From Candidatus Dojkabacteria bacterium (lineage in GTDB: Bacteria > Patescibacteriota > Dojkabacteria > JAHIVN01): a DNA stretch of 64,000 nt. Where the stretch lies: the NCBI GenBank assembly GCA_016932045.1, contig JAFGDO010000010.1, forward strand, positions 1,759-65,758, in the 5' to 3' direction. The notes beneath the pieces were generated by a model, which saw only the letters and a program-made list of their open reading frames with translations, made no database searches and was not told the origin of the DNA. A program made the translations under genes and the position numbers. Of this stretch, positions 3,335 through 43,171 are shown one piece after another. The number at the start of each line of letters is the position of its first letter. Within the stretch, counting starts at the first letter, position 1.

Positions 3335-4408
3335 ATGCTGACTGCCCATCAAGTAAAAAAAATGCCGAAGGTTGATCTTCACAGACATATTGAAGGAAGC
3401 ATCCGACCTGCAACTATACTTGAGTACTCCCGCCTTAAAGATATTCTAGAAACAAGACAAACGCTTTCTGACTACGTTAATGCAATGCAGGTTAACGGTG
3501 AAGAAGAAAGTTTAATGGAATTCATCGAAAAGCTGGGAACAAGATTTATGCTTAAATATACAACTTGCCAAGAAGATATCGAGCGTTTCAGCTACGAAGC
3601 TTGTGAAGATGCTTCAAATGATTCTATTGTATATCTTGAATTGCGATGTTGCCCATCAAATTATATAAAGACTCCGATTTCGATCGAAGAGTTTATAGAA
3701 GGAATTTATACTGGCATACAAAAAGCAAAAGAAAAATACGGAATTAAAACCGGTCTTATAGTCTCGATAAAAAGAGAAGATCATTGGGAGATTAATCAAA
3801 AGGTTTCAAAAACAGTTATCGACTTCTTCCAAGAAGGAAAAGTAAATGGAATTGACCTTTGCGGAAACGAACCTATGTTTCCGGCAAGAGAGTATAAAGA
3901 TCTTTTTAAAGAATTCTATAAACGAGGTATTCCGATTTCAATTCATGCGGGAGAAGAAAAAGGTGCCAAGGGATTAGAGAATATAAAAGATGCAATAACA
4001 CTGCTCCATGCAGATCGAATCGGCCATGGTACTTTTGGAACATCTTCGCAAAGAATTATTTCACTTATAAAAGAGGAAGATATATTATGCGAGTTATGTT
4101 TAACAAGCAATGTACATACGAAACTTATTGAATCTGTTAGAAAGCACCCGATCTTTAAGTTTCTCGAATGCAAAGTACCTGTTTCAATAAATACCGACGA
4201 TCCAATAACATCAGGAATCACGCTAACTAAAGAATATATAAACCTAATTAAATATTACAATTTTAGCATCAGAGACTTCAAGAAGATCAACCTGGATGCA
4301 ATCAAATACTCGTTTCAGACCAAAAGGGAGAAAAAAGCTATCAAAAGAAGCTTTATGCACAAGTTCGATGAGTGGAGATACTTGTTGCTTGATAAGTATC
4401 TGATATAA
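3335..4408 (+). CDS. add: Adenosine/AMP deaminase family metal-dependent hydrolase.
   Basis: An N-terminal VDLHRHIEGS metal-binding motif and a C-terminal SINTDDP motif, both characteristic of adenosine deaminase. Confidence 0.8.
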   Translation: MLTAHQVKKMPKVDLHRHIEGSIRPATILEYSRLKDILETRQTLSDYVNAMQVNGEEESLMEFIEKLGTRFMLKYTTCQEDIERFSYEACEDASNDSIVYLELRCCPSNYIKTPISIEEFIEGIYTGIQKAKEKYGIKTGLIVSIKREDHWEINQKVSKTVIDFFQEGKVNGIDLCGNEPMFPAREYKDLFKEFYKRGIPISIHAGEEKGAKGLENIKDAITLLHADRIGHGTFGTSSQRIISLIKEEDILCELCLTSNVHTKLIESVRKHPIFKFLECKVPVSINTDDPITSGITLTKEYINLIKYYNFSIRDFKKINLDAIKYSFQTKREKKAIKRSFMHKFDEWRYLLLDKYLI

Positions 4409-4565
4409 GCTATATGCTGTCTGCTTTCAGCCTACAACTTGCAGCTATACAGCTGTTTCCCCTTTTCCTTCTGGACTTTTGCCTTTTGCCTTATTCTCTG
4501 CTATCATCCGTTCAAGTATGAGATATTTAGTAACTATGAATAAAAACTCCTTACAAACCGCTTCA

Positions 4566-4588: not shown

Positions 4589-4691
4589 TACACCTTTAGC
4601 ATTTTTCATATAAATTCTCTATAATAAAGTTATTCTTTAATGCTACATTTTTCATTCTTAATTTATAATTCTTAATTTTTAATCAGACAAA

Positions 4692-6626
4692 ATGAACTCT
4701 CTTGAAATCAAGAAAAAATTTATAGAATTCTTTAGATCAAAAGGGCATAAAGAAATCCCGAATGTGCCATTAATTCCCGAAAACGATCCAACATCGCTTT
4801 TCATCATGGCCGGTATGCAGCCCCTTTCGCCATATTTTGGAGGAGAACCGCATCCTACAGGCGATAAACTTGTTAATATACAAAGATGTGTCCGAACAGA
4901 TGATATTGAAGAAGTAGGTGATACTATTCATCAAACTTTCTTTGAGATGTTAGGCTATTGGTCACTTGGAGCATATTTCAAGAAAGAGGCCATCGAAATG
5001 TCTTTTGAATTTTATACTTCACAAGAGTGGCTCGGATTAGATCCAGAAAGAATTTATGCTACGGTATTTGAAGGCGATAATGATGCTCCACGCGATGAAG
5101 AAGCAATAGAGATCTGGAAAAAAATCTTTAAAAATGTTGGTATAAGAGCTGAAGTTTATGACAAAAAGAAAAAAGACAATAGTTCCGCAAGAATTTTCCC
5201 GTTAAATAAAAAAGAGAATTGGTGGGGACCAGTAGGAGAAAGTGGTCCCTGCGGTCCTGATAGCGAATTTTTCTATTGGAGGGGGAAAGACAAACCTGAC
5301 TTTTCAGAATTTGTTCCTTATGACAATTCAAATATGTTTATTGAAATAGGAAACGATGTTTTCATGGCATATAATAAAACTAAGGAAGGAAAATACGAAC
5401 CTTTAAAGCAGAAGAATATTGATTTTGGCGGAGGAATGGAACGAATAGCTTTAGTCTGTACGCTAAGAGAAAAGGACGGTTCAGTTCCGTATAATTTCAC
5501 TAATTTTAATACAGATTTATTTGATACGCCTCTCTCGTATCTTCGAAGCCTTGTTGAAGATGAAAGCAGAAAGTCCACAAGAGAAGAGAATGAAGATGCA
5601 GAAAATATTACAGAATTTGATCTTACACTAACTGATTTCAACAACCCCAGCCAGGCTGTTAAGGCTTTCAGAGTTATTCTTGATCACACAAGAGCTTGTA
5701 CTTTCCTTGTCGCAGATGGTATCGAGCCGTCAAACAAAGATCAGGGCTATATACTTCGAAGACTGTTGAGAAGATCAGTAAGACACGCAAAGTTAATAGG
5801 CATAGAGGGCACCTTTACCAAAGATATTGCTAAACTTTACATTGATAAATACAAGATCCAATATCCTCATCTTGCTGATATGCAGAACAAAATTCTGAAT
5901 ATCTTAGAGAAGGAAGAGATAAATTTTGAGAATTCAATAAAAATCGGTGCCAAAGAAATAGATAAACTTGAAGCAAGCGGGAAAAAGATTACCGGAAAAG
6001 ATCTTTTTAATATCTTCGAGACCTATGGCTTTCCAATTGAAATGGCATTAGATGAGTTAGGCATAGAGAAGGACGAATTACGAATGAAATATCAGAGGGA
6101 ATTTGATAAGGCAAAGGAGAAGCATCAAGAACTATCAAGAAAAGGATCTAAAGGAAAATTCAAGGGGGGATTAGCCGATTCCTCTGAAATTACAAAGCGG
6201 TATCATACCGCAACACATCTTTTACTTCGTGCTTTACAGGAAGTTCTTGGAGATCATGTACATCAACGAGGCAGTAACATAACAGAGGAAAGATTAAGAT
6301 TCGACTTCTCTCAAAGTGAACAATTAACAGATGAGCAGAAAAAAGAAGTTGAGAGACTTGTAAATGATAAGATAAAGGCAGGATTAAAGGTTCTAAAAAA
6401 GGTGATGCCGAAAGAGGAGGCTCTAAAAATCGGAGCTGAATGTGAATTTCCAGAAAAGTATCCCGATCAGGTTTCAATTTACGAGGTTGAAGGCTTCACA
6501 AAAGAATTCTGTGGAGGGCCTCATGTTGAAAACACCAAAGAACTTGCAAAGTCCGGCAAATTTAGGATAATAAAGGAAGAGAGTGTTGGGAGTGGAGTGA
6601 GAAGGATAAAGGCAGTATTACAATGA
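4692..6626 (+). CDS. alaS: Alanine--tRNA ligase, short form without the C-terminal C-Ala domain.
   Basis: An N-terminal class II AlaRS core (FIEFFRSKGH...FIMAGMQP...IQRCVRTDDIEEVGDT..HQTFFEMLGYWSLGAYFK) and an editing-domain HxxxH motif (HTATHLLLRALQ, CGGPHV). The protein is 644 aa, against about 870 for typical AlaRS. Confidence 0.9.
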   Translation: MNSLEIKKKFIEFFRSKGHKEIPNVPLIPENDPTSLFIMAGMQPLSPYFGGEPHPTGDKLVNIQRCVRTDDIEEVGDTIHQTFFEMLGYWSLGAYFKKEAIEMSFEFYTSQEWLGLDPERIYATVFEGDNDAPRDEEAIEIWKKIFKNVGIRAEVYDKKKKDNSSARIFPLNKKENWWGPVGESGPCGPDSEFFYWRGKDKPDFSEFVPYDNSNMFIEIGNDVFMAYNKTKEGKYEPLKQKNIDFGGGMERIALVCTLREKDGSVPYNFTNFNTDLFDTPLSYLRSLVEDESRKSTREENEDAENITEFDLTLTDFNNPSQAVKAFRVILDHTRACTFLVADGIEPSNKDQGYILRRLLRRSVRHAKLIGIEGTFTKDIAKLYIDKYKIQYPHLADMQNKILNILEKEEINFENSIKIGAKEIDKLEASGKKITGKDLFNIFETYGFPIEMALDELGIEKDELRMKYQREFDKAKEKHQELSRKGSKGKFKGGLADSSEITKRYHTATHLLLRALQEVLGDHVHQRGSNITEERLRFDFSQSEQLTDEQKKEVERLVNDKIKAGLKVLKKVMPKEEALKIGAECEFPEKYPDQVSIYEVEGFTKEFCGGPHVENTKELAKSGKFRIIKEESVGSGVRRIKAVLQ

Positions 6627-7277: not shown

Positions 7278-7525
7278 TAGCCAATCTCCAACAACCAATA
7301 TCCAATATTCAATCGTCAATTTAGTAACTCACAACTCATATCTGTTAACCTACTACTTCCCTATTTAACTATAAACTATCCAGCCACATATCCATCCGAC
7401 TATGTGACTATCTTTATTTTCACCTCTTCGCTTTTTGCTGTTCGCCATTTATACTGAGTGGAGTCGAAGTATTTGCTATTTGCAATTATCTTGTATTGAA
7501 ATCCTCTTTCAGCTAATATAAACCC

Positions 7526-24999: not shown

Positions 25000-25063
25000 T
25001 AGTTGGATGGTCGAAGCCAATCAGCTAATAAGCTAAAAGCTAACAAGCTAAAAAGCTAATAAA

Positions 25064-26083
25064 ATGAACCAAAAAGAACTAGCCGAAATAAAACAAGCAA
25101 TTCTTAAAAAGGTTGAAGAATTCGACACCTTCGCCTGTCTAGTTTCAGATCCTGATGAGGACGCTATTGCTTCAGGCCTTGCAATGGAAGAAGTTCTTGA
25201 ACAGCTCGGGAAAAACGTAAAACTTTATACAAGCTATGACGTAGAAGACTATTCTTATCTGCCTCGAAGTGAAAAGTATATACATCAAGATATTGCCTCG
25301 GTTGATTTAAGTATATTTGAATGTTTAATATTTCTTGATTGTGCCAGTCCTGAGAGGGTTTTACTGCCGCATGCAAGGATTGAGGAGTTTAAACTGCCTG
25401 ATAACGTTTTCGTTATTAATATAGACCATCATGAAACCAAAGAACCGTTTGGTGATTTAAATTATATTTCAACAAGCTTATCTTCATCTTCCGAAGGTAT
25501 TTATGATATTTTCAAAGACAAAGTAAAGCTTACACCATCTCTTTCTACAAATTTGCTTGCTGCAATAATAGGTGACACCGACTGCTTTAAACATACCGCT
25601 ATTACTACGCCAAAAACACTAAGGATTGCCGCAGATCTAATTGAGAATAATGCAAAGCATAAGCTTATCATTCAGAATATCTTTTATTCCTTTGCTGAAA
25701 AAGTAGTTGATTTGAATATAGATGCGATAAAAAACATAAAGGTAAAGCAGGTCGGGAAATACAGATATGCCTATGCAACATTTAACCCCAAAAAATTTGG
25801 TTTCACAGATGTCACAAGAGATCAAAGAGCACTAACACAGGAAAATGTGATTAGGACCATTAAGGGCATCGACTTTTCAATTGTAATTACTCCACTTGAA
25901 GATGGGATAATTAAACTTTCCTTTCGCTCTTCGAATGTTTACGTAAGACCTATAGGTGAACACTTCGGTGGAGGAGGGCACAATGAAGCTGCGGGAGCAA
26001 CTATCAATATGACAGAAAAAGAATTCTGGCAAAAGTTAGAAAAATATCTTGAGACTGCAGAATTACCCGAAATCAAAAATTGA
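25064..26083 (+). CDS. DHH/DHHA1 phosphoesterase (NrnA-like oligoribonuclease/pAp phosphatase).
   Basis: A DHH motif (INIDHHE) and a DHHA1 GGGH motif (FGGGGHNEAAG). Confidence 0.8.
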   Translation: MNQKELAEIKQAILKKVEEFDTFACLVSDPDEDAIASGLAMEEVLEQLGKNVKLYTSYDVEDYSYLPRSEKYIHQDIASVDLSIFECLIFLDCASPERVLLPHARIEEFKLPDNVFVINIDHHETKEPFGDLNYISTSLSSSSEGIYDIFKDKVKLTPSLSTNLLAAIIGDTDCFKHTAITTPKTLRIAADLIENNAKHKLIIQNIFYSFAEKVVDLNIDAIKNIKVKQVGKYRYAYATFNPKKFGFTDVTRDQRALTQENVIRTIKGIDFSIVITPLEDGIIKLSFRSSNVYVRPIGEHFGGGGHNEAAGATINMTEKEFWQKLEKYLETAELPEIKN

Positions 26084-26936
26084 ATTTTTCATTCTTACAT
26101 AAATTCTCGTAAAAATATACTTCGCAACGTTCTTTTTTCACAAGATGCTATCATTACTACAAGACAAGCTGTGAAACGCCGGTTCCACAGAATTATCCAC
26201 AAGTAATCTCCATCCGTGATCATTCCCAGACACAAACAACATTAAAACTGTGCATTTCTAGAACACAAGAAGGCTAGTATCCGCACATACCAGATCTTTC
26301 AACTTTATTCATCATTATATTATACCCACTACTCGTACCATCTCCTACGATATTACCAACGATATTAAGCTATCTACTATAAGTTGCACAGACCACTAGC
26401 TTAATATATAATCACGGCAACCATGCAAGTGCGAAAAAATGATCAAAATAGTCAATTTATTTTAAGGACCTTTTTTAAGATTCTAACCGCCTCTGTTTAT
26501 ATAAATCTGTTTTTCGGTCTCACGACTCCACTCTTGCTAAATAAATAACTAAGAATCAATTTCCAATCCACGATCTACAATCTACAATTAAACAACATGT
26601 CAATATAGCAATATAGCAATATATCAATTATACAATTATTCAATGATTCGCTTGAGAATCAAGAATGAAGAATTAAAAATTAACAATGAAACAATTTGGC
26701 AATGCAACTATTCCATTATTATAAGCTCTAGGAAATATTTTTCTTCCTCCAGCATCTACTTCTATTTTCCTATTCTCCATCAAAGAGAAGACTACATTTA
26801 CAATTAAGGGTGTACATACTCTACCAGGCTTAATGCAACTTGCATTTTTTCTATATTTATGAGTAAATTAATATGCTTATATTAAATAGAGATATAACTT
26901 CATTTATTAAAATATAAAATTTTAATCCCACCAAAA

Positions 26937-29900
26937 ATGTTTAAAGCTCTATTCCAAGTAAGAAAATTTTCCTCAAAAGTGTTACCTTTAGCGGTAACTT
27001 TTTTTATATTAGGAAATTATTTTCTTCCTTTATTTAACATTGTCGATTTTAGTGTAAATGCAGCACCAAATGTACCAACCAATCTTGGGTGGAATACATC
27101 TGCAACTCATCCTGGTAATCCTGGATACAGACCAGTTGAAATTACCTGCGGAGGATATACGAATCAAAACTCAGTAGCTCATAACTGGAGTGATGAGTCT
27201 GCAAGTGGTGCAGTAAGTTACGAGAGACAATGGCGGGCACCTGGATCTGCAACTTGGAGTACAGATCCAACTTCATACGTTAATCCTTACACCTCATTTA
27301 GTTCTTTTGGTGGAGGTGGAGGCACAGAGGGAATATGGAATACAAGAGTACGAGGATATGATGCTACCGGAGATCCAAGTGCTTGGAGCAATGAATGCCA
27401 AATCACATATGATGTAACCGCCCCAGTTGTACAAATAACCAGCCCAGGTGACGGAAATGTACTTAACGGCTTTGTAGACATACGAGGAAGTGTCACTGAC
27501 ACTAATCCTGATCATTATTATCTTGTTGTAAGAGAATTAGATAACACAGTAATTGATGGTCCTGGCACTGTTTACAGGTATGACTCTTTCACAGATGAAT
27601 TGCTTTTTACATGGGACACTACTTCAGTTACAGACGGGGATTATATAATCCATCTGGCCGCTCGAGATGCTGCTGGGAATAGAGATGATGCGGCCGGATC
27701 ACTTCATAGGATAACAGTAACAGTAGATAACACAGCACCGCCAACTCCTTCTCTTGTTTGGCCAACAGATGGTGCAGTTATTCATCCATCTATAGCTATT
27801 CTTGATTGGACTGATGAAACCGATCCGCATGGACCTGTTACTTACAACTATCAAAGCTCTTGGAGCGGTGGTTCTTTTGGTCCTGTTTCTACTGGCACAA
27901 ATTCTTTTATAAATGCTACTGGCAGTGCTGATAATACTTATCTATGGTAAGTTCAGGCCTGTGATAGTTTAAACAATTGCAGTGCCTGGTCAGGTCCTTG
28001 GGAAGTCACTATTGACGGCACTCCACCTTACTCAAATTTCCTAACTCCAACTGATAATTCCTACCATAACTCTCCCATTAATATTTCCGGATTAACAGCC
28101 GACGATGGAAGTGGAGTAGATTATGTTGATATATCCTGGACTACTTATAATGGAGCATCTTGTGACGACTTGAGCTGGGCTTACCTTACAACATTTGATA
28201 ACACGGATAATGATACACCTTTTAACTGGCCGGAGTCCCCTTACGCTTGGACTCCAGCATCAGAGGGAAGCTACTGTCTTATGGCTGAAGGTACTGATAA
28301 TGCCGGTAATCTGGAAACAACTGCATATGCAACCAATGTTGTTTATGATACGACAGCTCCATTGGTGCAAATTACAAACCCAAGCGACGGAGATCTGGTA
28401 AATGGAACTGTAAACATTCAAGGATCAGTAACCGATGATAATCTTTGGAGATACTGGTTTGTTGTACAAAATTCTGGAGGTACAACTGTAGCTGGACCAG
28501 GGACTGTCTATCATGACGGACCGATTGTAAATGTTAATTTGGGATGGGATACAACTGCTGTTCCTGATGGAGACTATACCATAAAACTTGAAGCACGTGA
28601 TAAAGCAGACAATAAAGATCCAATCGACTCTGTCCACTGGATAACAGTAACAGTAGATAATACAGCACCGCCAACCCCTTCTCTTGTTTGGCCGTCAGAT
28701 GGTGCCGTTATTCATCCATCCATAGCCATTCTTGATTGGACCGATGAAACTGATCCACATGGACCTGTTACATACAACTATCAAAGCTCCTGGAGCGGTG
28801 GCTCTTATGGCCCAGTTTCAACAGGAACGAATTCTTTCATTAACGCTACAGGTAGCGCTGATAATACTTACTTCTGGCAAGTTCAAGCTTGTGATAGTTT
28901 GAATAATTGTAGCGCTTGGTCGAGTCCTTGGGAAGTTACTATTGACAGTACACCTCCTTACTCTACATTCTTCGAACCAACAGATAATTCCTATCACAAT
29001 TCACCGATCGCAATTAGTGGACAGACAGCAGATGATGGAAGCGGTGTTGATTACGTAGATATATCATGGACCACCTATAACGGAGCATCTTGTGATGATT
29101 TAGGTTGGACATACCTAACAACATTTAACAATACTGATAATGACACGCCATTTAATTGGCCTGAATCCCCTTATGCTTGGACTCCAGCATCAGAAGGTAG
29201 CTATTGTCTGATGGCTGAAGGCACTGATAATGCGGGTAACCTTGAAACGACAGCTTACGCTACAAACGTTGTTTACGACACAACAGCTCCATATGTTGAG
29301 ATCACAGATCCTCTAGATGGTCAATATGTTAATGGTACTGTTGATATCTGGGGTTTTATCATAGATGATAATCTGAGTCACTATAATATTGCTATTTATC
29401 CAGGAGGTGTTGATACATGGAACTTTTCCGAAAGACTTGAACAACAGACAGTATACACATCAGAATTTGGAAATTCACAAATCTACTCGTGGGATACAAC
29501 AATCTATCCTGATGGGGACTATCAGATCCGTTTAGCTGCACGTGATTTAGCAGGTAATAGGGACCCGATGACTCCATCTTATCCCAATGAGATAGGAGAT
29601 TCAGTTCACATAATCACAGTTACAGTTGACAACACAGCTCCAACGGCTATGTTTGCAAATCAGTCTGTAGATGAGACAGTTACTTCATGGCCTGGGTATT
29701 CATTACTTGTGAGTTCTGAGCCAATAGTAAATATCAACTGTTCAACACTAGAGACACTGCCAAGAAATGCAGAAACCTTACCAAATCCAGTTGCCTTTAA
29801 CTGTACATTCGAGGACCTTGCGGGAAATCTTGGAACTAGTTCATATACAGTTACTGTAAATGATATTGTACCTTCAGTAGTTGTTAATCCTTCTAGTATA

Positions 29901-33163: not shown

Positions 33164-33275
33164 ATAGCTCGACGGTTGGATGGCCGGATGGCTAGGTAGC
33201 TAACCATCTAAAAAGCTGCAAGCTGATAGCTTGAAGCTTCATGACAATTATTAATTCTTCATTCTTAATTTTTAA

Positions 33276-33761
33276 TTGAATATAGTGCAAAACAAAGCTT
33301 GGATAAAAGCAGGTCTTCTTGCAGCAGGAGTTTCAATATTACTACAGCTACTTGGAACCATTTCGTGTCTAAAATGTGCATTGTGGCCTATATATTGCAC
33401 TTCGTGGTTCCTCGTTCCTTTAACCTGTGGATTTCTTGCTTCAACATGGGCTACCTTGGCTCGTGATGATCTCAGAGAAGCAGCGATTCAAGGAGCTCTT
33501 GCCGGTCTTGTTCTTGGAGTCTTAAGCGGAATTGTATCAATCAGTATAACGATAATCTCTTCAGTGCTCAACCTTAGCACGGTGACCTTCTTTAATGCTA
33601 TTGAAGAGAACAGGAATCTAACGGATTACCTGCCAATAAACACGTTAAACTTCGGAACAAGAATAGTATTTTCGACAATTGGATTTGTATTCGGGACCTT
33701 TTCAAATGTGATTCTTTCAGTTATTGGTGGTATAATCAAAGTCGCACTTTCAAAAAAATAG
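33276..33761 (+). CDS. Polytopic membrane protein, hypothetical.
   Basis: Four predicted TM helices and no recognisable motif. Confidence 0.5.
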   Translation: MNIVQNKAWIKAGLLAAGVSILLQLLGTISCLKCALWPIYCTSWFLVPLTCGFLASTWATLARDDLREAAIQGALAGLVLGVLSGIVSISITIISSVLNLSTVTFFNAIEENRNLTDYLPINTLNFGTRIVFSTIGFVFGTFSNVILSVIGGIIKVALSKK

Positions 33762-34036: not shown

Positions 34037-34066
34037 TTGACATCGCTAGGTACCATGTGATACTAT
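34037..34066 (+). promoter_or_regulatory. Sigma70-like promoter upstream of padR: TTGACA, 18-nt spacer, TGaTACTAT (extended -10).
   Basis: CTTGACATCGCTAGGTACCATGTGATACTATGCAG, with the -35 at 34037-34042 and the -10 at 34061-34066. An ATGT...ACAT-type half-site (ATGTGATAC) overlaps the -10 and could be a PadR operator. Confidence 0.45.
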
Positions 34067-34090
34067 GCAGCCGTTTTGTCTACTCAAAAT

Positions 34091-34417
34091 ATGTCTATAA
34101 GAACGCAACTAAAAAAAGGAACTCTAGAACTCTGCATTTTAGCCCTAATATACAAGGAAAAGCGATATGGCTATGACCTTGTCTGTCTTCTTCGTGATGC
34201 AGGACTTCTCGTTGCAGAAGGGACCTTATACCCAATTCTAACTCGCCTAGGAAAAGAGGGCTTAGTTATTCATGCATGGGTAGAGTCAACACAGGGACCT
34301 CCAAGAAAATATTATGAGATAACAAACAAAGGAAGAGAGATTCTAAAAGAAGAATTAATCGAATGGGGTGACATATCAAAAAGCGTAGACAAATTAATAA
34401 ACGGTATAAAATTTTAA
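34091..34417 (+). CDS. PadR family transcriptional regulator.
   Basis: A winged-HTH PadR signature: LELCILALIYKEKRYGYDLVCLL...EGTLYPILTRLGKEGLV...KYYEITNKGRE. The ORF-track TTG start at 34076 is probably too early; the ATG at 34091 is preferred. Confidence 0.8.
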   Translation: MSIRTQLKKGTLELCILALIYKEKRYGYDLVCLLRDAGLLVAEGTLYPILTRLGKEGLVIHAWVESTQGPPRKYYEITNKGREILKEELIEWGDISKSVDKLINGIKF

Positions 34418-34426
34418 TTTGAAAAA

Positions 34427-36358
34427 ATGGTTAAAAAAGAGGGATTGGGCCCAAAGGTATCCCAAAAAATTAAAAAATCCATAACAAGTTTTACCTATAA
34501 AGAATTTGACTTAGTTAAATTATTTAAATTTACAAAAGAGGCCAAAGTATCATTACAGAGCTATTTTAAAGAATTGGCAGTAATTAGGACGAATTATACT
34601 ACAGAAGAATATGAAGATATCACTTCAAGCATCAAAGAGCACTTCTATGTAGTTTTAAATGAATATAGAAAGAAGTCCAAAAAGGAACCAATAGGGAAAG
34701 ATAAAGTAGAGAAAATAATAAATGATCTTGGTGATCCGAAAGAATTTATCGAGGAAAAGGGCGGTGAAAAACTAGAAAAGACCATACGACGCGAAAAGTT
34801 TCATAAGATTGCACTTAAGGCCGTATGGGTAATCATAAAATATTCATTTCTTATACTCTTGTTCATCTGTATTTACCTGCCAATAATCTTGACGCTCTTG
34901 TCTGTAGCGATTGGCGGATTTTTTGCTTCACTTATATGGATAGTAAATCCTACTAACTTCTTCGGAGAACAAATTATTGTGACCTCCTCTCTGGGTGTGT
35001 TAACACCAATCTTTGGAGTAGGACTGACTTTTCTGGCAACTGGACTTTGCATTCTTATTTTAAATCTCATTGGACGAATCCACTGGAAAAGACCATTACT
35101 AAAACTGAGATGTCTTACATTCCTGATCATCTTATTTGGAATAGTAATCACTTTTGGCACCTTTATAACCTTCTTTATCTTAAACAGAAAAGAAGAAGTA
35201 AGTTCTGAGTCGTTTAAAGAAGAACTGAATGGAATAGACACATTAGTTGTGGATGAAATATTTGATGATTTAGAAATTGTCGGTGATCAAAGTTTGGAAG
35301 ATGAGATTTCTATCCAAATTGAGAAGAGTGCCACAGGTTATGACAGCAGGGACGCATTTAACAATTTAGAAAGCATTGATTTCTCGATTGAAAAGATAGA
35401 AAACGAAATTTTCATTTCAAGCTTCTATAATGAATCTTTACGAAGTATGTATCATTTTGAAGACCTCAATATCACTATCAAAGTACCGCGGAATTTAAAA
35501 GTCAAATTCAATAGTGAAAAAGAGGATGATTCCAGGAAGATATTCCTTATGCTTGCTCTCCATGACATCTCATCAAAGATCAAGGTGAAAAATATTACTA
35601 CTGACTTAGATATCAGTTATTCATTTGGCAACCTGGAGTTTGAAAATATTACAAATGATGAATTTAGACTTGATCACAAGTTTGGGAATACGAAGGTGAA
35701 GAATCTAAAAACAAATGACCTTTTGATACAAAAGGAAAGCGGCTCAACCTTACTTGAAGAGATTAACGTTAGAAAAGATTGCGTTTTAAACTCAAAATTT
35801 GGATCAATAGAAGCAAAAACCGTAACTGCCGAATCAGTACAAATTGATAGTAATTCTGGAAGTATCGAGTTAGCGGGGATTGATGCAAGACTATCACTAA
35901 ATTCTAAATATAGCTCGATACAGATAGATAACGTAACGGGAGATACTTACATTGATTCAAGTAGTGGGGCCATAGAAATTATCAATCTTGTTGGCGACTT
36001 AACTATTGAAACAAAATACGGGAGCACGAGTGTAAACGACATAAGAGGAAAGCTCATAGTAAATAGCTCGGGCGGATCCATTGAAATTGGAAACATGAAG
36101 GGAAGTGTAGATATAAAAAATAAGTACGGCTCGATAGAAGTCGATTTTGAAGAAGTAACCAAGAGAAGTCAGAATTTTATAACAAACTCCTCAGGATCAG
36201 TTTATGTGGCTCTTCCTCAGGAAGCATATCCGGAGGTGCGCGTTTCTTCTGATTATGGCAGTGTAAGCAATGACTTTTCAAAGGAAAGTGTAAGAGACGA
36301 CAGTCCAATCTTCGATATAGAAGTAGAGTATGGAGGTGCGGAGATAGATAGAAAATGA
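34427..36358 (+). CDS. Membrane protein with an N-terminal DUF1700/HAAS-like (PadR-associated sensor) domain, a TM segment and a C-terminal DUF4097-like beta-rich domain (LiaG/YvlB-like).
   Basis: The N-terminal ~120 aa are helical and charged, followed by 5-6 TM helices. The C-terminus has repeated strands of the type KYGSIEVD / SSGGSIEIGN / SSGAIEII typical of DUF4097. It lies 10 nt downstream of padR. Confidence 0.6.
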   Translation: MVKKEGLGPKVSQKIKKSITSFTYKEFDLVKLFKFTKEAKVSLQSYFKELAVIRTNYTTEEYEDITSSIKEHFYVVLNEYRKKSKKEPIGKDKVEKIINDLGDPKEFIEEKGGEKLEKTIRREKFHKIALKAVWVIIKYSFLILLFICIYLPIILTLLSVAIGGFFASLIWIVNPTNFFGEQIIVTSSLGVLTPIFGVGLTFLATGLCILILNLIGRIHWKRPLLKLRCLTFLIILFGIVITFGTFITFFILNRKEEVSSESFKEELNGIDTLVVDEIFDDLEIVGDQSLEDEISIQIEKSATGYDSRDAFNNLESIDFSIEKIENEIFISSFYNESLRSMYHFEDLNITIKVPRNLKVKFNSEKEDDSRKIFLMLALHDISSKIKVKNITTDLDISYSFGNLEFENITNDEFRLDHKFGNTKVKNLKTNDLLIQKESGSTLLEEINVRKDCVLNSKFGSIEAKTVTAESVQIDSNSGSIELAGIDARLSLNSKYSSIQIDNVTGDTYIDSSSGAIEIINLVGDLTIETKYGSTSVNDIRGKLIVNSSGGSIEIGNMKGSVDIKNKYGSIEVDFEEVTKRSQNFITNSSGSVYVALPQEAYPEVRVSSDYGSVSNDFSKESVRDDSPIFDIEVEYGGAEIDRK

Positions 36359-36427
36359 TCGTGGTGATCAATTCAAATCAGTAAATTTAATTACAAAAGT
36401 AACCAAATAACTTAAGTTCTATTAAAC

Positions 36428-37084
36428 ATGTTAATCCAAACAAAAAATCTGACTCTAATATATGAAAACGGCAAGAATGATGTAACTGCAGTTAACGAGG
36501 TCAACATGACCCTTCCTGAAAAAGGTTTTTTCGGAATTCTTGGTCCGTCAGGCTCAGGAAAAACTTCGCTTCTTTACCTTTTATCTGGCATAAAACGTCC
36601 GACACTTGGAACAATTATTTACAGGGGAGAAACTTTTCCGCAATCATCTGGAGCAAGAAATAAGATAAGGAAAGAGGAGATGGGATTTGTATTTCAACAC
36701 CATTTCTTGATTAATTATCTCAGTACAGAGCAAAATATCCTTATTGGAGCATCCAGACAAGATCATGAAGCCCAGGAAAGAGTCCGGGAACTTATAGCTA
36801 AACTAGGTCTAGAAGAACTAGAAAAAAGACCCCCATATAAACTATCGGGGGGACAGAGACAGAGAGTTGCAATAGGAAGAGCGTTTGCAAATGAACCCAA
36901 GGTTGTTTTTGTCGACGAGCCAACAGCTTCTCTAGACCATAAAACGGGACAGAAAGTTGTCAAATTGCTAAAGGATTATTCGAAAAATGCATGCGTACTC
37001 TCCGTTACCCATGATCCGACAATTTTAAAGGGAGCAGATGGAGTATTCAAAATGTGGGACGGGAGATTGGAGGCTGGAAGTTAG
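36428..37084 (+). CDS. MacB/LolD-type ABC transporter ATP-binding protein.
   Basis: Walker A GPSGSGKTS, signature LSGGQRQRVAIGRA and Walker B VFVDEPTASLD. Confidence 0.85.
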   Translation: MLIQTKNLTLIYENGKNDVTAVNEVNMTLPEKGFFGILGPSGSGKTSLLYLLSGIKRPTLGTIIYRGETFPQSSGARNKIRKEEMGFVFQHHFLINYLSTEQNILIGASRQDHEAQERVRELIAKLGLEELEKRPPYKLSGGQRQRVAIGRAFANEPKVVFVDEPTASLDHKTGQKVVKLLKDYSKNACVLSVTHDPTILKGADGVFKMWDGRLEAGS

Positions 37085-37145
37085 ACGTTGGACGTGCGAT
37101 GTTAGACGTCAATCGTCAAACTTACTACTTATTACTACATTTCAA

Positions 37146-37502
37146 ATGCAGAACTACCACAATATAAATACCTGGAAGAAATCACATAAGCTGACAATGG
37201 AACTATACAAAGTAACTTCAAGATTCCCCAAGGAAGAGGTTTATGGAATAACAAATCAGCTTAAAAGATGTTGTTCATCTATTCCTGCAAATATTGCAGA
37301 AGGATGTGGGAGAAGAACGAATAAGGACTTATTGAGATTCTGTTACATTGCACTTGGATCTGCAAATGAAACTGAATACTTTTTACTTCTTTCAAAGGAT
37401 CTTAGTTACTTGGGTACAAAAGAATATAAAGCTTTAAATGAAAAGATAAACGAAATCAGACGCATGCTGATTAATTTTATTAAGAAACTTGATCCGAAGT
37501 AG
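37146..37502 (+). CDS. Four-helix-bundle protein (PF05635 / 23S rRNA IVS protein family; DGR Avd homolog).
   Basis: WKKSHKLTMELYKVTSRFPKEEVYGITNQLKRCCSSIPANIAEGCGRRTNKDLLRFCYIALGSANETEYFLLLSKDL shows the full family signature. The ORF-track start at 37038 overlaps the ATPase gene, so the internal ATG at 37146 is preferred. Confidence 0.75.
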   Translation: MQNYHNINTWKKSHKLTMELYKVTSRFPKEEVYGITNQLKRCCSSIPANIAEGCGRRTNKDLLRFCYIALGSANETEYFLLLSKDLSYLGTKEYKALNEKINEIRRMLINFIKKLDPK

Positions 37503-37560
37503 ATAAAATTATTGTGAAACGTCATACGTCAAACATCTAACTTCTTACTCTTTAGAAAAC

Positions 37561-38739
37561 ATGTTAAAACCACTCTCAGTACTAACTTACTACCTAAAAA
37601 ATAAAAGAAAGATATTGCCTATCATAGCAATCATAGCACTCTCTATTCTTGGGATATCTGTAACTGCCGCGATATCTGACTCTATGTGGCGAACTGTGTA
37701 CCAAAGTTTAGGCTTTTTTAACGACTACTACACCGCCTCTATCTCCTTTTCCCCTGACTCAGAGCTTGGTATAGAAGAATTCAAACAACTGCACAAAGAT
37801 CTTATAAACGAAATAGAGGGCATGGATGCAAAGGAGTACTACATCGAAAGTGATATCAGAAGTATAAAAATCACAACAATTTTTGGATCAAACAACGCCC
37901 TTATACTATTCATGGACAAGAACGACCATGACAAATTCTTAGATGAAATAGACTGCAAAGTTGTTGAAGGCCGGCTACCGGAAAATACTAGTGAAGTAAT
38001 TCTTGAAAAATCGATCATGAAAAATAAAGATCTAAAGCTAGGAGATAAGATAGGATCAAAGGTAGATGAGGATGAATGGCTTGATGGTGAATATGAGGTC
38101 GTAGGGATCATAGAGTCAAATGATAAGGAAAACGAGAATATGCTTGCTGTCGGATATAAAAATGGTGAAAAGGATGAAGAAATGGCTCTTATAAGTGAGT
38201 ACCTTATTCATCCAAAAGATGGACAGGAGGAAGCATTGAATCAACAAATGCACGACCTTACAGAAAAGTACCCAGATGTTGAGATAGAAACAAAACAAAC
38301 TCTTTACAAAGAAATAGAAGAAGAGTTTAATTCTATAAATCAGGTACTTTGGGCTATGAATATTGTTGTTATTCTGACAATTACTTCTTCAATAGCTCTT
38401 CTAAATGTCATTTTTTTCATGCAAAGGGCAAATGAATTTGGTCTCCTCGCAGCAGTTGGCTATTCAAAGAGTTTCATCATAAAAAGAACACTTTTTGAGT
38501 CATTTGGAAGTATCATTTTCGGATGGCTTTGTGGAATCGCATTCTCTGAGGTCGTATATAGAATTATCAATGCACAAGTATTTGACCCAAAGGGAATAGA
38601 GGGCCTGACAATCATAAATGGTAATACTTTGCTTTTCACAGTCCCGGTTCCTGTTGCAGTTGCAATATTCAGCGCAGGAACAGTGCTGTGGAAATTATTC
38701 AAAATGGACCCGATAAGTATTATTGAGAGGCGAGACTAA
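37561..38739 (+). CDS. FtsX/MacB-family ABC transporter permease.
   Basis: An N-terminal TM helix, a ~230-aa extracytoplasmic domain, and a C-terminal three-helix FtsX-like bundle. Confidence 0.75.
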   Translation: MLKPLSVLTYYLKNKRKILPIIAIIALSILGISVTAAISDSMWRTVYQSLGFFNDYYTASISFSPDSELGIEEFKQLHKDLINEIEGMDAKEYYIESDIRSIKITTIFGSNNALILFMDKNDHDKFLDEIDCKVVEGRLPENTSEVILEKSIMKNKDLKLGDKIGSKVDEDEWLDGEYEVVGIIESNDKENENMLAVGYKNGEKDEEMALISEYLIHPKDGQEEALNQQMHDLTEKYPDVEIETKQTLYKEIEEEFNSINQVLWAMNIVVILTITSSIALLNVIFFMQRANEFGLLAAVGYSKSFIIKRTLFESFGSIIFGWLCGIAFSEVVYRIINAQVFDPKGIEGLTIINGNTLLFTVPVPVAVAIFSAGTVLWKLFKMDPISIIERRD

Positions 38740-39085
38740 GAAATGGGAAAGTAGTGAAATAGTGAAGTAGTAAATAGTTTGACGGTTGGATGGTTGCTTG
38801 CTCCTGCCCTCGCCGGCAGGCCACGTAATGCGCGGCAGACGGACGCATTGTGCGGGGACGGTTTCATTGCTTCATTGACCAAATGTGCATATTTTTAATT
38901 TTTAATTGAAGATTGAAAATTGATTATTGAATATAGGTTCCTAGTTGGGGTTTATTTCGCGTACAATTATTTAATTTTTAAAAACAAGTCCATTCGCCTT
39001 ACTTCATTAATACTGCCGTTTCCTTGCTAAGCAGATCTCAAACCGGCTTTCAGTTATTAATGAAAAAGGATTAGGCTTTAAATTT

Positions 39086-39691
39086 ATGGCAAAATTCTTC
39101 AGCTGGCTTAAGATCAACTGTATCTTCTTCCTCCTCCCATTTATCTTAGTAGGAATAGTGTCAATTGTAATGCCAGATTTGATGTTGCTTTTACTTGGTG
39201 CCTGGGTAAAGGTTATTGAACTAGTTGCAAATCCACCTAAAATTGATGATAACTGCTCACGATTTCAACTTTTTCAAGAAATCTTTTTCAGGAATTCATT
39301 TTCAGCTGTAATCTGCTTTCTGGTTGGAATTGTCAATCAGGGACCAATTACAATGCTTTTTTATGGAATTTTTTATGCACTAATTATATTTTTAGCACCA
39401 GTAACAAGAGGAAGTTTGTTTTCCCTTATTGATTGGATATTTGTGGCAATGGAAATTGTAGCACTTATCATAAGCACCTCAATTGGATCATATATAGCGG
39501 GTGAATGGTTAGGTGTTGAGCCTACATTTAAGTCATTTTTCAAATACTGGAAAGAAAATTGGAAAAGATTCTGGCCAAAGGGAATTATCTCATTTAAGGA
39601 AGCAATACTAAAAACAAAAATGGAATTAATATTCGCAATAATCATAGCTCTTATTCTTCTTATATTGAGCGCAGCTATAGAAGTTTTATAA
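39086..39691 (+). CDS. Polytopic membrane protein, hypothetical.
   Basis: Several TM helices. The antisense ORF 39373..39816 is judged spurious. Confidence 0.5.
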   Translation: MAKFFSWLKINCIFFLLPFILVGIVSIVMPDLMLLLLGAWVKVIELVANPPKIDDNCSRFQLFQEIFFRNSFSAVICFLVGIVNQGPITMLFYGIFYALIIFLAPVTRGSLFSLIDWIFVAMEIVALIISTSIGSYIAGEWLGVEPTFKSFFKYWKENWKRFWPKGIISFKEAILKTKMELIFAIIIALILLILSAAIEVL

Positions 39692-39846
39692 GTAAAAAAT
39701 AGCAAAATGACCGCTCTTTGGAGCTTCCTTTTGCAATCCAACCAATACGAAATAAACCATGAACTTACCAAACTGTACTTTTTCTGTATAGAAAAACTCC
39801 TAAAGATCTGATACAATATTTCATCAATAATATTATTCTACCAAGC

Positions 39847-40698: not shown

Positions 40699-40964
40699 TA
40701 CTTTGATCTAAACAATCTAGGAGATCTAGTGATCAAAAAAGGTCGATTGGATCGTATAGATCGATTTAATCGACTTAATCATCGATCATCTGAATAGATA
40801 AACAGTAATGTTGTTAAAATTGATAGGCTCGAATAGCGATTAGCAAGAAGCGAAGAATTGTCGTATGGTTGTATAGCTGGAGGCTGAAAGCTTATAGCTA
40901 AAAGCTAAAAAGCTAACAGCCAATAGTTATGAGATATTGGATCATTTCAACCGTTTGACTTCCG

Positions 40965-41207
40965 GATTCATTGCGAATATAATTCTTATCGACAGTGAGG
41001 AAGAGGTCTAGTGAGACTCTTCCATTTTTCAAAATTACCATAAAACTGAATATTCCACATAAAGAGTGCTCAGCTTGCATTGCTGAGAAATAAGAGTGGA
41101 ACCACGGTTTATCCTGCCTGCGATGAGCAAAGTAGAATAAAGCTTGTCGAAGGAAAATTCCGCCTCTAAACATTAATATTATTAGTGTTTAAAGGCGGGA
41201 TTTTTTT
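40965..41207 (+). promoter_or_regulatory. Candidate T-box riboswitch leader for thrS, with an ACC (Thr) specifier.
   Basis: A T-box-like motif AGAGUGGAACCACGG at 41093-41107 (consensus AGGGUGGNACCGCGG). An antiterminator can form as AGAG[UGGAACC]ACGG paired with CCGCCUCU, and the latter is the 5' arm of the downstream terminator hairpin 41159-41199 followed by U7. Upstream there is a Stem-I-like long hairpin whose distal loop contains AGUGA, and ACC-A at 41037-41040 sits on its 3' side. Confidence 0.5.
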
Positions 41208-41407
41208 AGTATAGTCATACTGTTAAACAACTTCACAACTAGAGGTCTATGTTTAGGATTAATAAATAGAAATATGTTGTTTATGCAAAATATTACTATA
41301 GAAATGAATACAAACTCTACAGCATCTAGAACTACAACCCCCTAGGGGGTAACATTTATATTCCTAATTTTATAATTTTTCATTTTACATTTTTAGTTTT
41401 TCTTAAC

Positions 41408-43171
41408 ATGGCACAAAAAAATGAACAATCCAAAAAAGTATCTGAGATAGAAAGGATGCGGCACAGTTTTGCGCATATACTTGCCCATGCTGTTATGCAT
41501 TTATTTCCAGAGGCCAAGCTTGGTATAGGACCGGCTATTGAAAACGGATTTTACTATGATTTTGACCTTCCAAAGCAACTTACTCCAGAAGATCTACCAA
41601 AGATAGAAAAAGAGATGAAAAAACTTATTGCTGAAGAATTACCTTTTCAGCAATTAAATCTCAACAGAGATGAAGCTATGGACATGCTGCTTCAGCAGGG
41701 ACAACTATACAAAACTGAGCTACTGAATGAAATTCCTGATGAGGAAGTCAGTTTCTACAGAACTGGGAATGAATTTATGGATATGTGCAGAGGTCCTCAT
41801 GTTGAGCATACAGGACAGCTGGGGGCATTTAAACTTATGAGTGTAGCCGGAGCTTATTGGAGAGGGGATGAGAAGAGACCACAAATGCAGCGTATTTATG
41901 GTGTAGCATTTAAAACTGAGCAGGAACTGAAAAAACATCTTGAGAACCTAAAAGAATTAAAGAATCGCGACCACAGAAAGCTTGGAAAAGAGCTGGATCT
42001 ATTCTTAATTGATGAAACTGTCGGACAAGGGCTAGTTATGTGGTTACCCAAGGGATCTCAAATAAGAAAAATCATCGAGGACTTTGAGTATAAAGAGAGA
42101 ATTAAATTAGGGTATGAACCTGTTTATACTCCACATATAGGTAGTCTAAAATTATTTAAAGAATCAGGACATTGGCAGCATTACCGTGACTCAATGTACG
42201 CACCAATCGAAATAGATAAGGAAAAATACCTTCTTAAGCCCATGAATTGTCCTTTCCATGCCAAGATTTACTCAAGAAAAATTCGAAGTTATCGTGATCT
42301 TCCAATAAAGTACTGCGAATATGGAACTGTATATAGATATGAGAAGTCTGGAGAACTATCTGGACTGACTCGTGTAAGAGGATTTACTCAAGATGATGCT
42401 CATATCTATTTCCGTGAAGACCAAACGAAAGAGCTTGTCATAGAAACAATCCAAGCAACAATAAGACTGATAACTGCATTCGGCTTTGATAACTATCGTG
42501 TAAGGCTATCTTTAAGAGACCAAAAAGATAAAGAAAAATTCATAGATAAACCAGAAGCTTGGGCAAAAGCAGAAAAAGGACTGAGAGACGCACTTAAAGA
42601 AATGGAAGTAGATTATATAGAGGAAATAGGAGAGGCGGCCTTTTACGGGCCTAAAGTTGATTTTCTTGTGAAAGATGCATTGGGAAGAGAAGAGCAGTGT
42701 GGCACAGTACAACTTGATTTCAATGTCCCTGAAAGATTTAAGTTAACCTATATTGACGAGAATGGAAAGGAACAGCAGCCTGTTATGATTCACTGGGCAC
42801 CGCTCGGTTCATTTGAGCGTTTCTTCTCGCGAATTATAGAGCACTATGGTGGAGCATTTCCTGCTTGGTTATCACCATTACAGGCAAGAATTATCCCGAT
42901 TTCCAAAAAGTTTAACAACTACGCGAAAATAGTAAAGGAGGAACTTGATAAAAGAGATATTCGCTCCGCTATTGATGAGAGGGATGAGACACTGCAAGCT
43001 AAGATACGAGATTCAGAAATGGATAAGATTCCTTATATGTTGGTCATAGGGAAAAAGGAACAAGCAAATAAAGCTGTTGCTGTAAGACCAAGAACTGGAG
43101 CAGACTTGGGAATGATGAAACTCGATGAATTCATTGAACGGATAGAGGAGGAAATCCAAGCAAAAAAATAG
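41408..43171 (+). CDS. thrS: Threonine--tRNA ligase, short form lacking the N-terminal TGS domain.
   Basis: It starts at the second additional domain's HxxxH motif (HSFAHILAHAV). Class II motifs are present (FRTGNEFMDMCRGPHV, YGTVYRYEKSGELSGLTRVRGFTQDDAHIY) along with a C-terminal anticodon-binding domain. Confidence 0.9.
   Translation: MAQKNEQSKKVSEIERMRHSFAHILAHAVMHLFPEAKLGIGPAIENGFYYDFDLPKQLTPEDLPKIEKEMKKLIAEELPFQQLNLNRDEAMDMLLQQGQLYKTELLNEIPDEEVSFYRTGNEFMDMCRGPHVEHTGQLGAFKLMSVAGAYWRGDEKRPQMQRIYGVAFKTEQELKKHLENLKELKNRDHRKLGKELDLFLIDETVGQGLVMWLPKGSQIRKIIEDFEYKERIKLGYEPVYTPHIGSLKLFKESGHWQHYRDSMYAPIEIDKEKYLLKPMNCPFHAKIYSRKIRSYRDLPIKYCEYGTVYRYEKSGELSGLTRVRGFTQDDAHIYFREDQTKELVIETIQATIRLITAFGFDNYRVRLSLRDQKDKEKFIDKPEAWAKAEKGLRDALKEMEVDYIEEIGEAAFYGPKVDFLVKDALGREEQCGTVQLDFNVPERFKLTYIDENGKEQQPVMIHWAPLGSFERFFSRIIEHYGGAFPAWLSPLQARIIPISKKFNNYAKIVKEELDKRDIRSAIDERDETLQAKIRDSEMDKIPYMLVIGKKEQANKAVAVRPRTGADLGMMKLDEFIERIEEEIQAKK

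Follow-up and report, generated by a model that had tools for sequence, protein, structure and literature searches.

The stretch of 64,000 nt from a Candidatus Dojkabacteria genome that was analysed here (the window) carries five co-directional genes on the + strand between positions 34037 and 38739. They encode a PadR-family regulator, a large membrane protein, the ATPase of an ATP-binding cassette (ABC) transporter, a four-helix-bundle protein of the PF05635 family and an FtsX-type permease. The four-helix-bundle gene, which lies between the two transporter genes, very probably belongs to a sporadic cassette of the intervening sequence (IVS) type, known from ribosomal RNA, and not to the transporter. 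The insert is lineage-specific, its two arms are complementary to each other far beyond chance, and the architecture is general for the family across many phyla. The row of five genes most likely combines three units, each with a history of its own.

A first-pass annotation of the window had described the row as a single module with the four-helix-bundle gene as an extra component of the transporter. The five genes were found where it had placed them, tightly spaced on the + strand (gaps of 9, 69, 61 and 58 nt in the list of open reading frames, ORFs), and its PadR, MacB/LolD-type ATPase, PF05635 and FtsX calls were borne out by Pfam and NCBIfam matches. These calls and the pairing of PadR with a Toastrack protein are retained below, but the single module with an extra transporter component is not. 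The genes and the parts of the cassette are as follows.

34076..34417, + strand: PadR-family winged-helix regulator (PF03551, E 3.4e-21, Pfam)
34427..36358, + strand: membrane protein of 643 aa (DUF4097/Toastrack, E 2.6e-17; Toast-rack_PspC-Cterm, E 8.8e-8, Pfam)
36428..37084, + strand: ABC transporter ATPase of the LolD/MacB/FtsE-like group (ABC_tran, E 9e-33)
37067..37122, + strand: left array of ~8 degenerate heptamers, overlapping the last 6 codons and the stop of the ATPase gene
37069..37552, + strand: cassette closed by a predicted terminal stem (arms 37069-37103 and 37518-37552)
37146..37502, + strand: four-helix-bundle gene of the S23p / 23S rRNA IVS protein family (PF05635, E 1.7e-39; TIGR02436)
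37511..37555, + strand: right array of ~6 degenerate heptamers, the reverse complement of the left unit, ending 5 nt before the permease start
37561..38739, + strand: FtsX-type ABC permease of 392 aa (PF02687, E 1.6e-9)

The four-helix-bundle gene is missing from the ATPase-permease junction of relatives

Relatives of the permease were collected as 53 loci from a scan with one genome per species, to which L057 and L145 were added from metagenome assemblies (loci are given L numbers and proteins P numbers). The order ATPase-permease was found in ten of them (L001-L006, L016, L017, L057 and L145), with the two genes 0-19 nt apart or overlapping. In the window the gap is 476 nt, and the flanking genes are both intact; the ATPase has a C-terminus of normal length (...KMWDGRLEAGS and stop, aligning with ...KMWDGELERIS and stop in L001). 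A PF05635 gene between ATPase and permease was absent in 10/10 of these relatives, and none was found in the relatives with the reverse order. An all-frame hidden Markov model (HMM) search of L001-L057 detected the family only in L007 and L008. A tblastn search with the window protein missed divergent members (L008 and a second copy in the window), which the all-frame HMM search recovered.

The sole other locus with the five-gene order is L058, which must be the same genome as the window because the two are 100% identical over 9650 nt. The exact gene order is therefore not one that relatives conserve, and the four-helix-bundle gene is absent from this position in all of them. In the Anaerolineae-type ABC operons of L007 and L008 the gene takes different places, the order being permease, four-helix-bundle gene, permease, ATPase in the former and permease, permease, ATPase, four-helix-bundle gene in the latter; seven sister loci in the L007-L015 group have no PF05635 gene.

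The ATPase contains the motifs GPSGSGKT (Walker A), LSGGQRQR (signature), VVFVDEPT (Walker B) and VTHD (H-loop), and its top NCBIfam similarities are LolD, DevA and MacB, each under the equivalog cut-off. The permease is full length (~50 homologues at 100% query coverage), with hydrophobic segments at residues 15-42 and 261-379. Both genes resemble transporters of the MacB/LolCDE/FtsEX type (type VII) in that ATPase and permease are separate, the FtsX domain is C-terminal and ~220 aa separate the first hydrophobic stretch from the second. Unlike in that type, no adaptor or outer-membrane partner is adjacent, and the MacB_PCD domain (PF12704) was not detected in this permease by a Pfam scan at E<=0.01; precomputed PF12704 matches are listed for three of its homologues, P0004 (marked weak), P0032 and P0047. 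The closest relatives of the permease (48-55% identical) belong to plain two-gene ABC units in other neighbourhoods and without PadR. By these comparisons the ATPase and the FtsX permease appear to be an ordinary two-gene MacB-type ABC unit, separate from the PadR pair.

Anatomy of the cassette

The cassette of ~490 bp (37067-37555) adds ~460 nt to the spacer of the relatives, exactly at the gene junction. The left array is made of the units TTGGAGG, CTGGAAG, TTAGACG, TTGGACG, TGCGATG, TTAGACG, TCAATCG and TCAAACT; Tandem Repeats Finder gave period 7 and 4.1 copies at 37067-37095, and lag-7 detection placed the array at 37061-37102. The right array reads GTGAAAC, GTCATAC, GTCAAAC, ATCTAAC, TTCTTAC and TCTTTAG. 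In a pattern search of the 64-kb window, no copies of the arm motif were found outside the two arrays.

The four-helix-bundle gene is bracketed by an inverted repeat of 27 nt with 81% complementarity. When 37060-37565 was folded, a predicted stem of ~30 bp closed the cassette in the minimum free energy structure and in the centroid structure alike. The duplex formed by the arms was computed at -38.3 kcal/mol, compared with -20.5 +/- 2.6 for shuffled arms (z -6.7), and 0/300 shuffles reached it. Promoter-like matches inside the cassette are weak only. Rfam gave no known RNA family for the arms or the intergenic parts, and in the whole window it returned tRNA-Val alone, with no rRNA.

The same architecture surrounds homologous genes

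For the four-helix-bundle gene, 80 homologous loci were fetched from metagenomes, 70 of which were testable for a flanking inverted repeat. Such a repeat, at z>4 against shuffles, was present in 56/70 of the homologous loci and in 2/116 neighbouring genes (Mann-Whitney p 1.6e-25). The autocorrelation of the flanks had its best lag at 7 in nearly all loci and at 8 in a few. The repeat cores vary from locus to locus (TAAGT, TCAGC, TTAGC, TCAGT, AAAGT, AACGC, GACGT and others), and the downstream array carries the reverse complement of the core of its own locus; in 41 loci the own partner ranked among the top 3 of 76.

These genes lie within operons of many kinds. The upstream neighbour is co-directional in 64/75 cases and the downstream one in 57/72, at median gaps of 58 and 49 nt. 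The host contexts include cheA-cheB, relA, a sigma-54 activator, Wzz-kinase, lysA-holB, ilvB-ilvN, leuA-leuB, pairs of MacB permeases, nuoF-nuoG, CHAT-APH and TldD. A cassette between argC and argD was checked with Pfam in L059 and L119. In L061-L063, L065-L067, L070, L073, L084 and L086 the sizes of the neighbouring genes match the argC-argD pattern, and L063, L065 and L084 have a second, divergent copy one gene on (argD-argF) with a different heptamer core. The recurrence at the argC-argD junction suggests long persistence of the cassette there.

Type I-D CRISPR-Cas loci on a Pseudanabaena plasmid (L144) and a plasmid of Anabaena sp. 90 (L148) also have the gene, with very long arrays, at the junction of cas6 and cas4. 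The arrays of L144 are AAAAGCT x15 upstream and AAAAGCC x9 downstream, and in L148 the annotated 5' end of cas4 contains the downstream CTGTCAC array. Earlier work reported the family from cas loci and took it there for a possible functional partner (PMC3936711). Our data suggest that many of the associations of PF05635 with CRISPR-Cas and other systems reflect nesting of cassettes in operons of any function, and the cas6-cas4 position may explain the published cas-associated hits.

The plasmids alpha and gamma of Nostoc sp. PCC 7120 (L143, L149) encode the same protein, WP_010994075.1. The gamma copy directly follows an annotated ISL3-family transposase gene and the alpha copy a sequence resembling the 3' end of such a gene; only the downstream heptamer array (CCTCTGC type) is kept in these copies. 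Here the four-helix-bundle gene looks like a passenger of an insertion sequence.

The four-helix-bundle protein and the likeness to rRNA intervening sequences

The assignment to PF05635 is firm, at 134.7 bits against a cut-off of 33.8 and over profile positions 2-105 of 106, and the match to TIGR02436 ("four helix bundle protein") reaches 135 bits against a cut-off of 24. The protein has 118 aa from the start at 37146 (the same gene is called as 101 aa in the protein collection) and is basic, with an isoelectric point of 9.5. Profile searches matched it to the PDB entries 2GSC (XCC0516, E 8e-23) and 2RLD (E 3e-17), and XCC0516, which is structurally close to the family, has been reported to form a homopentameric toroid of four-helix bundles (PMC4990558). 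Alignment of 23 homologues gave 42 invariant columns. The closest homologues are 55-63% identical, and those with a named source come from Bacteroidota (Pedobacter, Daejeonella, Ferruginibacter), not from Patescibacteria. Pfam and NCBIfam gave no match to a transporter-associated family. PADLOC gave no match either, and an anti-phage defence annotation was dropped for lack of a hit.

A second PF05635 gene, which is decayed, was seen on the + strand at 2169-2468 of the window, where the frame 2190-2465 matches profile positions 7-83 of 106 (E 3e-17). A stop lies directly before this frame and the likely ATG at 2169 is in another frame, which gives an apparent frameshift, and the last helix is missing. 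This copy follows an ABC ATPase gene (1053-2039) and is followed in turn by a diacylglycerol kinase gene in convergent orientation; its flanks retain only a weak inverted repeat.

The cassette resembles the IVS elements of rRNA in every tested respect except its location outside rRNA. Like the elements of Leptospira, Coxiella burnetii, Xanthomonas, Brucella and the Candidate Phyla Radiation (CPR), it has a PF05635 ORF of ~120 aa in the loop of a long stem formed by terminal repeats. It shares with them tandem heptamers between stem and start codon, a total length of ~430-490 nt, a sense orientation relative to the host transcript and a patchy distribution. The 23S IVS of C. burnetii, with 428 nt and a terminal stem of 28 bp, is excised by RNase III and has three or four tandem GACAGAT heptamers before its S23p ORF (PMC4990558), and 23S_rRNA_IVP ORFs are known from rRNA insertions at scattered sites in CPR bacteria (10.1101/2024.02.27.582315). 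Unlike these elements, the cassette of the window is part of an mRNA operon, where the ATPase and permease genes flank it, and does not lie in a 23S or 16S helix. It has heptamer arrays on both sides. Its ORF is strongly conserved and intact; that of Coxiella is reported to be decaying and probably untranslated. A literature search within the library available to us returned no description of operon-nested PF05635 cassettes with inverted heptamer arrays.

A probable composite operon and its alternatives

We propose a model in which the row combines three units. Unit A, PadR with the HAAS-like/transmembrane (TM)/Toastrack protein, would be a self-regulated envelope-signal dyad driven by the promoter at 34037-34066, and unit B, the MacB/FtsX-type ABC pair downstream, would probably be read through from that promoter. 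Unit C would be the cassette of ~490 bp, inserted exactly in an ATPase-permease spacer that is normally 0-19 nt. Without a recognisable strong promoter of its own, it would be transcribed by read-through with the host operon, and its arms may pair in the transcript into the stem of ~30 bp. RNase III might then cut the stem as in rRNA IVS, splitting the ATPase and permease messages and releasing the small ORF. Excision by RNase III was demonstrated for rRNA elements, and by analogy it is conceivable for this cassette, although we lean slightly against it. If formed, a long RNase III-type stem should uncouple the expression of the two subunits of a single machine that are encoded on either side of it. 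The target of the basic, conserved protein would be nucleic acid, possibly the heptamer arrays, and not the transporter.

Several observations weigh against this model. Permutation of the heptamer units lowered the complementarity score significantly in only 5/33 loci (median p 0.30). The arms thus match mostly without regard to register, and the claim made here is limited to matching at the level of whole arrays; compensatory covariation of single positions within the arms was considered and rejected on this mostly negative permutation test. No target-site duplication was found at the cassette, and no near-identical copies of a cassette were found at different sites, except beside the ISL3 transposase genes of Nostoc. 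The insertion is carried by one genome only. The four-helix-bundle gene has a G+C content of 0.33 (0.32 at third codon positions), equal to that of host genes, and recent transfer is not supported by composition. As heptamer arrays are common in intergenic DNA throughout the window, the cassette arms may have arisen at the site itself instead of arriving with the insert. Finally, ABC or efflux contexts recur around the family, at both PF05635 genes of the window, in L007 and L008, in the clade of L101, L104, L123 and L140, and in L113 and L147. A non-random link of PF05635 genes with ABC/efflux operons is possible; by our estimate ABC genes occur in ~4/20 independent unbiased contexts, which is suggestive and indistinguishable from chance given the abundance of ABC genes.

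The strongest competitor of a sporadic cassette is a domesticated, operon-internal device, in which stem and protein would set the relative stability or translation of the flanking genes and be retained by the host as useful. Persistence at fixed junctions speaks for it, as at argC-argD in many contigs of Bacteroidota-like type, where identity of the protein to the query is no more than 55-60% (some with the argD-argF copy) and at the cas6-cas4 position common to Pseudanabaena and Anabaena. The protein is strongly conserved, and solo heptamer arrays stand directly before start codons in the window, a placement for which an effect on translation has been proposed in Beggiatoaceae (PMC4679880). 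However, the gene is patchily present among close relatives and a decayed copy lies in the same window, so that we regard this reading as improbable; it does not exclude a selfish origin.

The view that the protein serves the PadR/Toastrack/ABC module as an accessory subunit or as a regulator could draw on a gene that is intact, well conserved, co-directional and placed between two transporter genes, and on the recurrence of PF05635 beside ABC/efflux genes (the remnant after the ATPase gene at 1053-2039, L007, L008, the L101/L140 clade, L113 and L147). It is largely refuted by the lack of the gene at the ATPase-permease position in every relative. The same subfamily occurs in arg, ilv, leu, nuo, che and cas operons, the position differs between the related operons L007 and L008, and the protein matches no transporter-associated family. 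The proposal of an extra transporter component is unsupported because the gene is absent in relatives and its close homologues are found in unrelated operons, and we consider it very unlikely. With the sporadic cassette as the preferred reading, the transporter gains no new subunit, and annotation from neighbourhood would be misleading at this locus.

There is next to no chance that the gene is an Avd accessory of a diversity-generating retroelement (DGR), or a remnant of one: a weak similarity to Avd exists (PF22296, E 3.8e-7; NF033474, E 1.9e-7; phrog_3206, E 1.5e-7), but neither of the Avd models with a curated threshold reaches it (31 against 40 bits for PF22296 and 31.3 against 80 for NF033474, compared with 135 against 24 for TIGR02436), no reverse transcriptase is among the genes identified at 25-44 kb, and the sole long direct repeat nearby (27709/28639) has mismatches that are mostly T-C and not at adenines. 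The DGR reading was rejected on the Avd scores, the missing reverse transcriptase and the identification of this 300-nt repeat as a paralogue duplication. The bAvd protein of retroelements belongs to the same superfamily of basic four-helix-bundle proteins, has weak profile similarity to the protein of the window and is likewise a pentamer, but no template/variable repeat pair lies near the gene. The 300-nt direct repeat (27709-28008 and 28639-28938, 87% identical) links two neighbouring genes that encode surface proteins with Ig-like domains; the first of these genes has TAA where the second has CAA and is possibly truncated.

Heptamer arrays beyond the cassette

Tandem arrays of period 7 are frequent in the window, 12 being found where 0.07 are expected from Markov-2 shuffles. 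All of them are intergenic or straddle a gene end, and several end at start codons (the ORF at 4692, the ORF at 25064 and the threonyl-tRNA synthetase, ThrRS, gene at 41408). Apart from those of the cassette, the following degenerate arrays were listed, two of which are octamer arrays.

4397-4438
4643-4685
7278-7323
25015-25063
26557-26695
33241-33285
38888-38940
40874-40923
41366-41404

Outside cassettes, arrays occur at 14.2 per 100 kb in loci with PF05635 genes compared with 4.2 in loci not chosen for them. The 55 loci selected by the permease contain 25 period-7 arrays, all in the Anaerolineae/Chloroflexi-type group L007-L015, which also has the only two PF05635 genes of these 55 loci (L007 and L008). 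This distribution suggests that the four-helix-bundle protein and the heptamer arrays may be functionally coupled. Arrays in this group are seen for example at 5805-5884 of L009, 4535-4625 of L015 and 6962-7002 of L010, and some are inverted back to back with no ORF between them.

Cyanobacterial heptamer repeats of the short tandemly repeated repetitive (STRR) type were reportedly described by Mazel and colleagues in 1990. The arrays of the window resemble the TAACTGA and STRR repeats in being degenerate tandem repeats of 7 nt that are intergenic and often placed just before start codons. Intergenic TAACTGA repeats are patchily spread in Beggiatoaceae, Cyanobacteria and Bacteroidetes, which suggests horizontal transfer (PMC4679880). 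As far as the literature on these repeats (PMC4679880) could be searched, it contains no link to PF05635 genes or to inverted pairs that enclose an ORF, and IVS, S23 and helix bundles are not mentioned in it.

A wider proposal would be that S23p/PF05635 genes and mirror-image heptamer arrays form one widespread class of elements that nests in any well-transcribed RNA, be it an rRNA helix or an operon spacer, and whose protein, basic and probably pentameric, recognises, maintains or spreads the arrays. We put this forward tentatively and consider it rather unlikely. If true, the class would tie together the rRNA IVS proteins, the patchy intergenic heptamers and the recurring associations with cas and other operons, and would take in the TAACTGA/STRR-type repeats of Cyanobacteria, Bacteroidetes and Beggiatoaceae together with those of a CPR bacterium and of Anaerolineae found here. 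A coupling of protein and arrays, if real, would give a testable handle on the role of the IVS protein and on the origin of intergenic heptamer repeats. The cassette pattern itself is a worthwhile lead.

The PadR/Toastrack pair and the probable transcription unit

The first two genes of the row form a pair of their own. The true start of PadR is likely the ATG at 34091 (108 aa), in agreement with the gene call in L058 and with the orthologue in L141. The 643-aa membrane protein is LiaG-like (69 bits, NCBIfam) and consists of a HAAS-like region at ~45-115, a hydrophobic block at 127-254 and C-terminal Toastrack/DUF4097 repeats. The earlier description of this protein as HAAS/DUF4097 holds for the DUF4097 part, but the match to HAAS (PF22564; E 0.0024, 18.7 bits against a cut-off of 27) is sub-threshold. 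HAAS matches recur at ~45-115 in both orthologues (E 0.021 and 0.034), all of them below the 27-bit cut-off.

The only full-length relatives of the Toastrack protein are P0242 (39%) and P0243 (35%), and both are directly preceded by PadR, the adjacency being conserved in L141 and L142. L142 contains just this pair. In L141 the gene order of the window is kept for PadR, Toastrack, DUF4013, ThrRS and initiation factor IF3 (synteny, with ThrRS DNA 75% identical), but the ABC genes, the four-helix-bundle gene and the SpoIIM-like gene are all missing. The reading of the row as one five-gene module does not agree with this distribution, in which the PadR pair occurs without ABC genes (L141) and the ABC pair without PadR. 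Comparison of window positions 36359-39846 with 3287-3566 of L141 shows ~3.3 kb extra between the Toastrack and DUF4013 genes; the block comprises the ATPase gene, the cassette, the permease gene and the SpoIIM-like gene, and reflects either gain here or loss in L141.

By sequence, PadR and the Toastrack protein appear to be a conserved two-gene unit that corresponds to the published HAAS-PadR dyad (10.1101/2020.09.24.301986), in the model of which PadR is held or released by the membrane protein. In Listeria, the operon lltR-lmo0600(DUF1700)-lmo0601(DUF4097) is autorepressed (PMC6624303). The window pair resembles both systems in having the PadR gene directly before a membrane protein with a HAAS-type N-terminus and Toastrack/DUF4097, and its promoter is compatible with autoregulation as in the lltR operon. 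It differs from them in that HAAS, TM and Toastrack regions are fused in one protein of 643 aa, in the sub-threshold HAAS match and in its CPR host. The following signals were identified around this transcription unit.

34037..34066, + strand: sigma-70-like promoter (-35 TTGACA at 34037-42; TG-extended -10 GATACT/TACTAT at 34059-66)
34046..34054, no strand assigned: candidate PadR operator CTAGGTACC, partly palindromic, in the promoter spacer and identical in the window and L141
41151..41214, + strand: terminator-like long hairpin with a U-run (fold z -5.8), the first such structure downstream of the PadR promoter

The promoter, which the first-pass annotation had also placed ahead of the operon, matches 10/12 positions with a spacer of 16-18 nt, better than any other + strand site in the region. 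Over 48 nt it has 83% identity with the orthologous stretch of L141, although the adjacent proteins are only 39-72% identical, and both loci share the layout CTTGACA-N3-CTAGGTACC-N6-TACTATGCA. The PadR operator looked for at 34051-34070 was a different one, ATGT-N8-ACAT, and is not present there; an ATGT occurs at 34055-58 without an ACAT partner. A repeat search of the operator region found no short inverted repeat with a 6-nt seed. The element CTAGGTACC was spotted by eye and by comparison with L141 and L142, the latter having a related pair, ACTAGGTA...TACCAAGT, that flanks the -35. We take CTAGGTACC to be a candidate PadR operator.

Co-transcription of the five genes is plausible because no terminator-like site was found on the + strand between 33700 and 39200, and the five genes may well be co-transcribed. 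In the 346-nt spacer 3' of the permease gene, a G+C-rich stretch at 38780-38870 was observed in this genome of 36% G+C. It gave no Rfam match and folds no better than shuffles (z +2.2), and the reading as a structured RNA was dropped.

The hairpin at 41151-41214, a near-perfect one of 57 nt with an A-rich stretch before it, separates the DUF4013 gene from ThrRS. L141 shares it in both orientations, and it probably acts as a terminator in both directions, closing the transcription unit from the PadR promoter.

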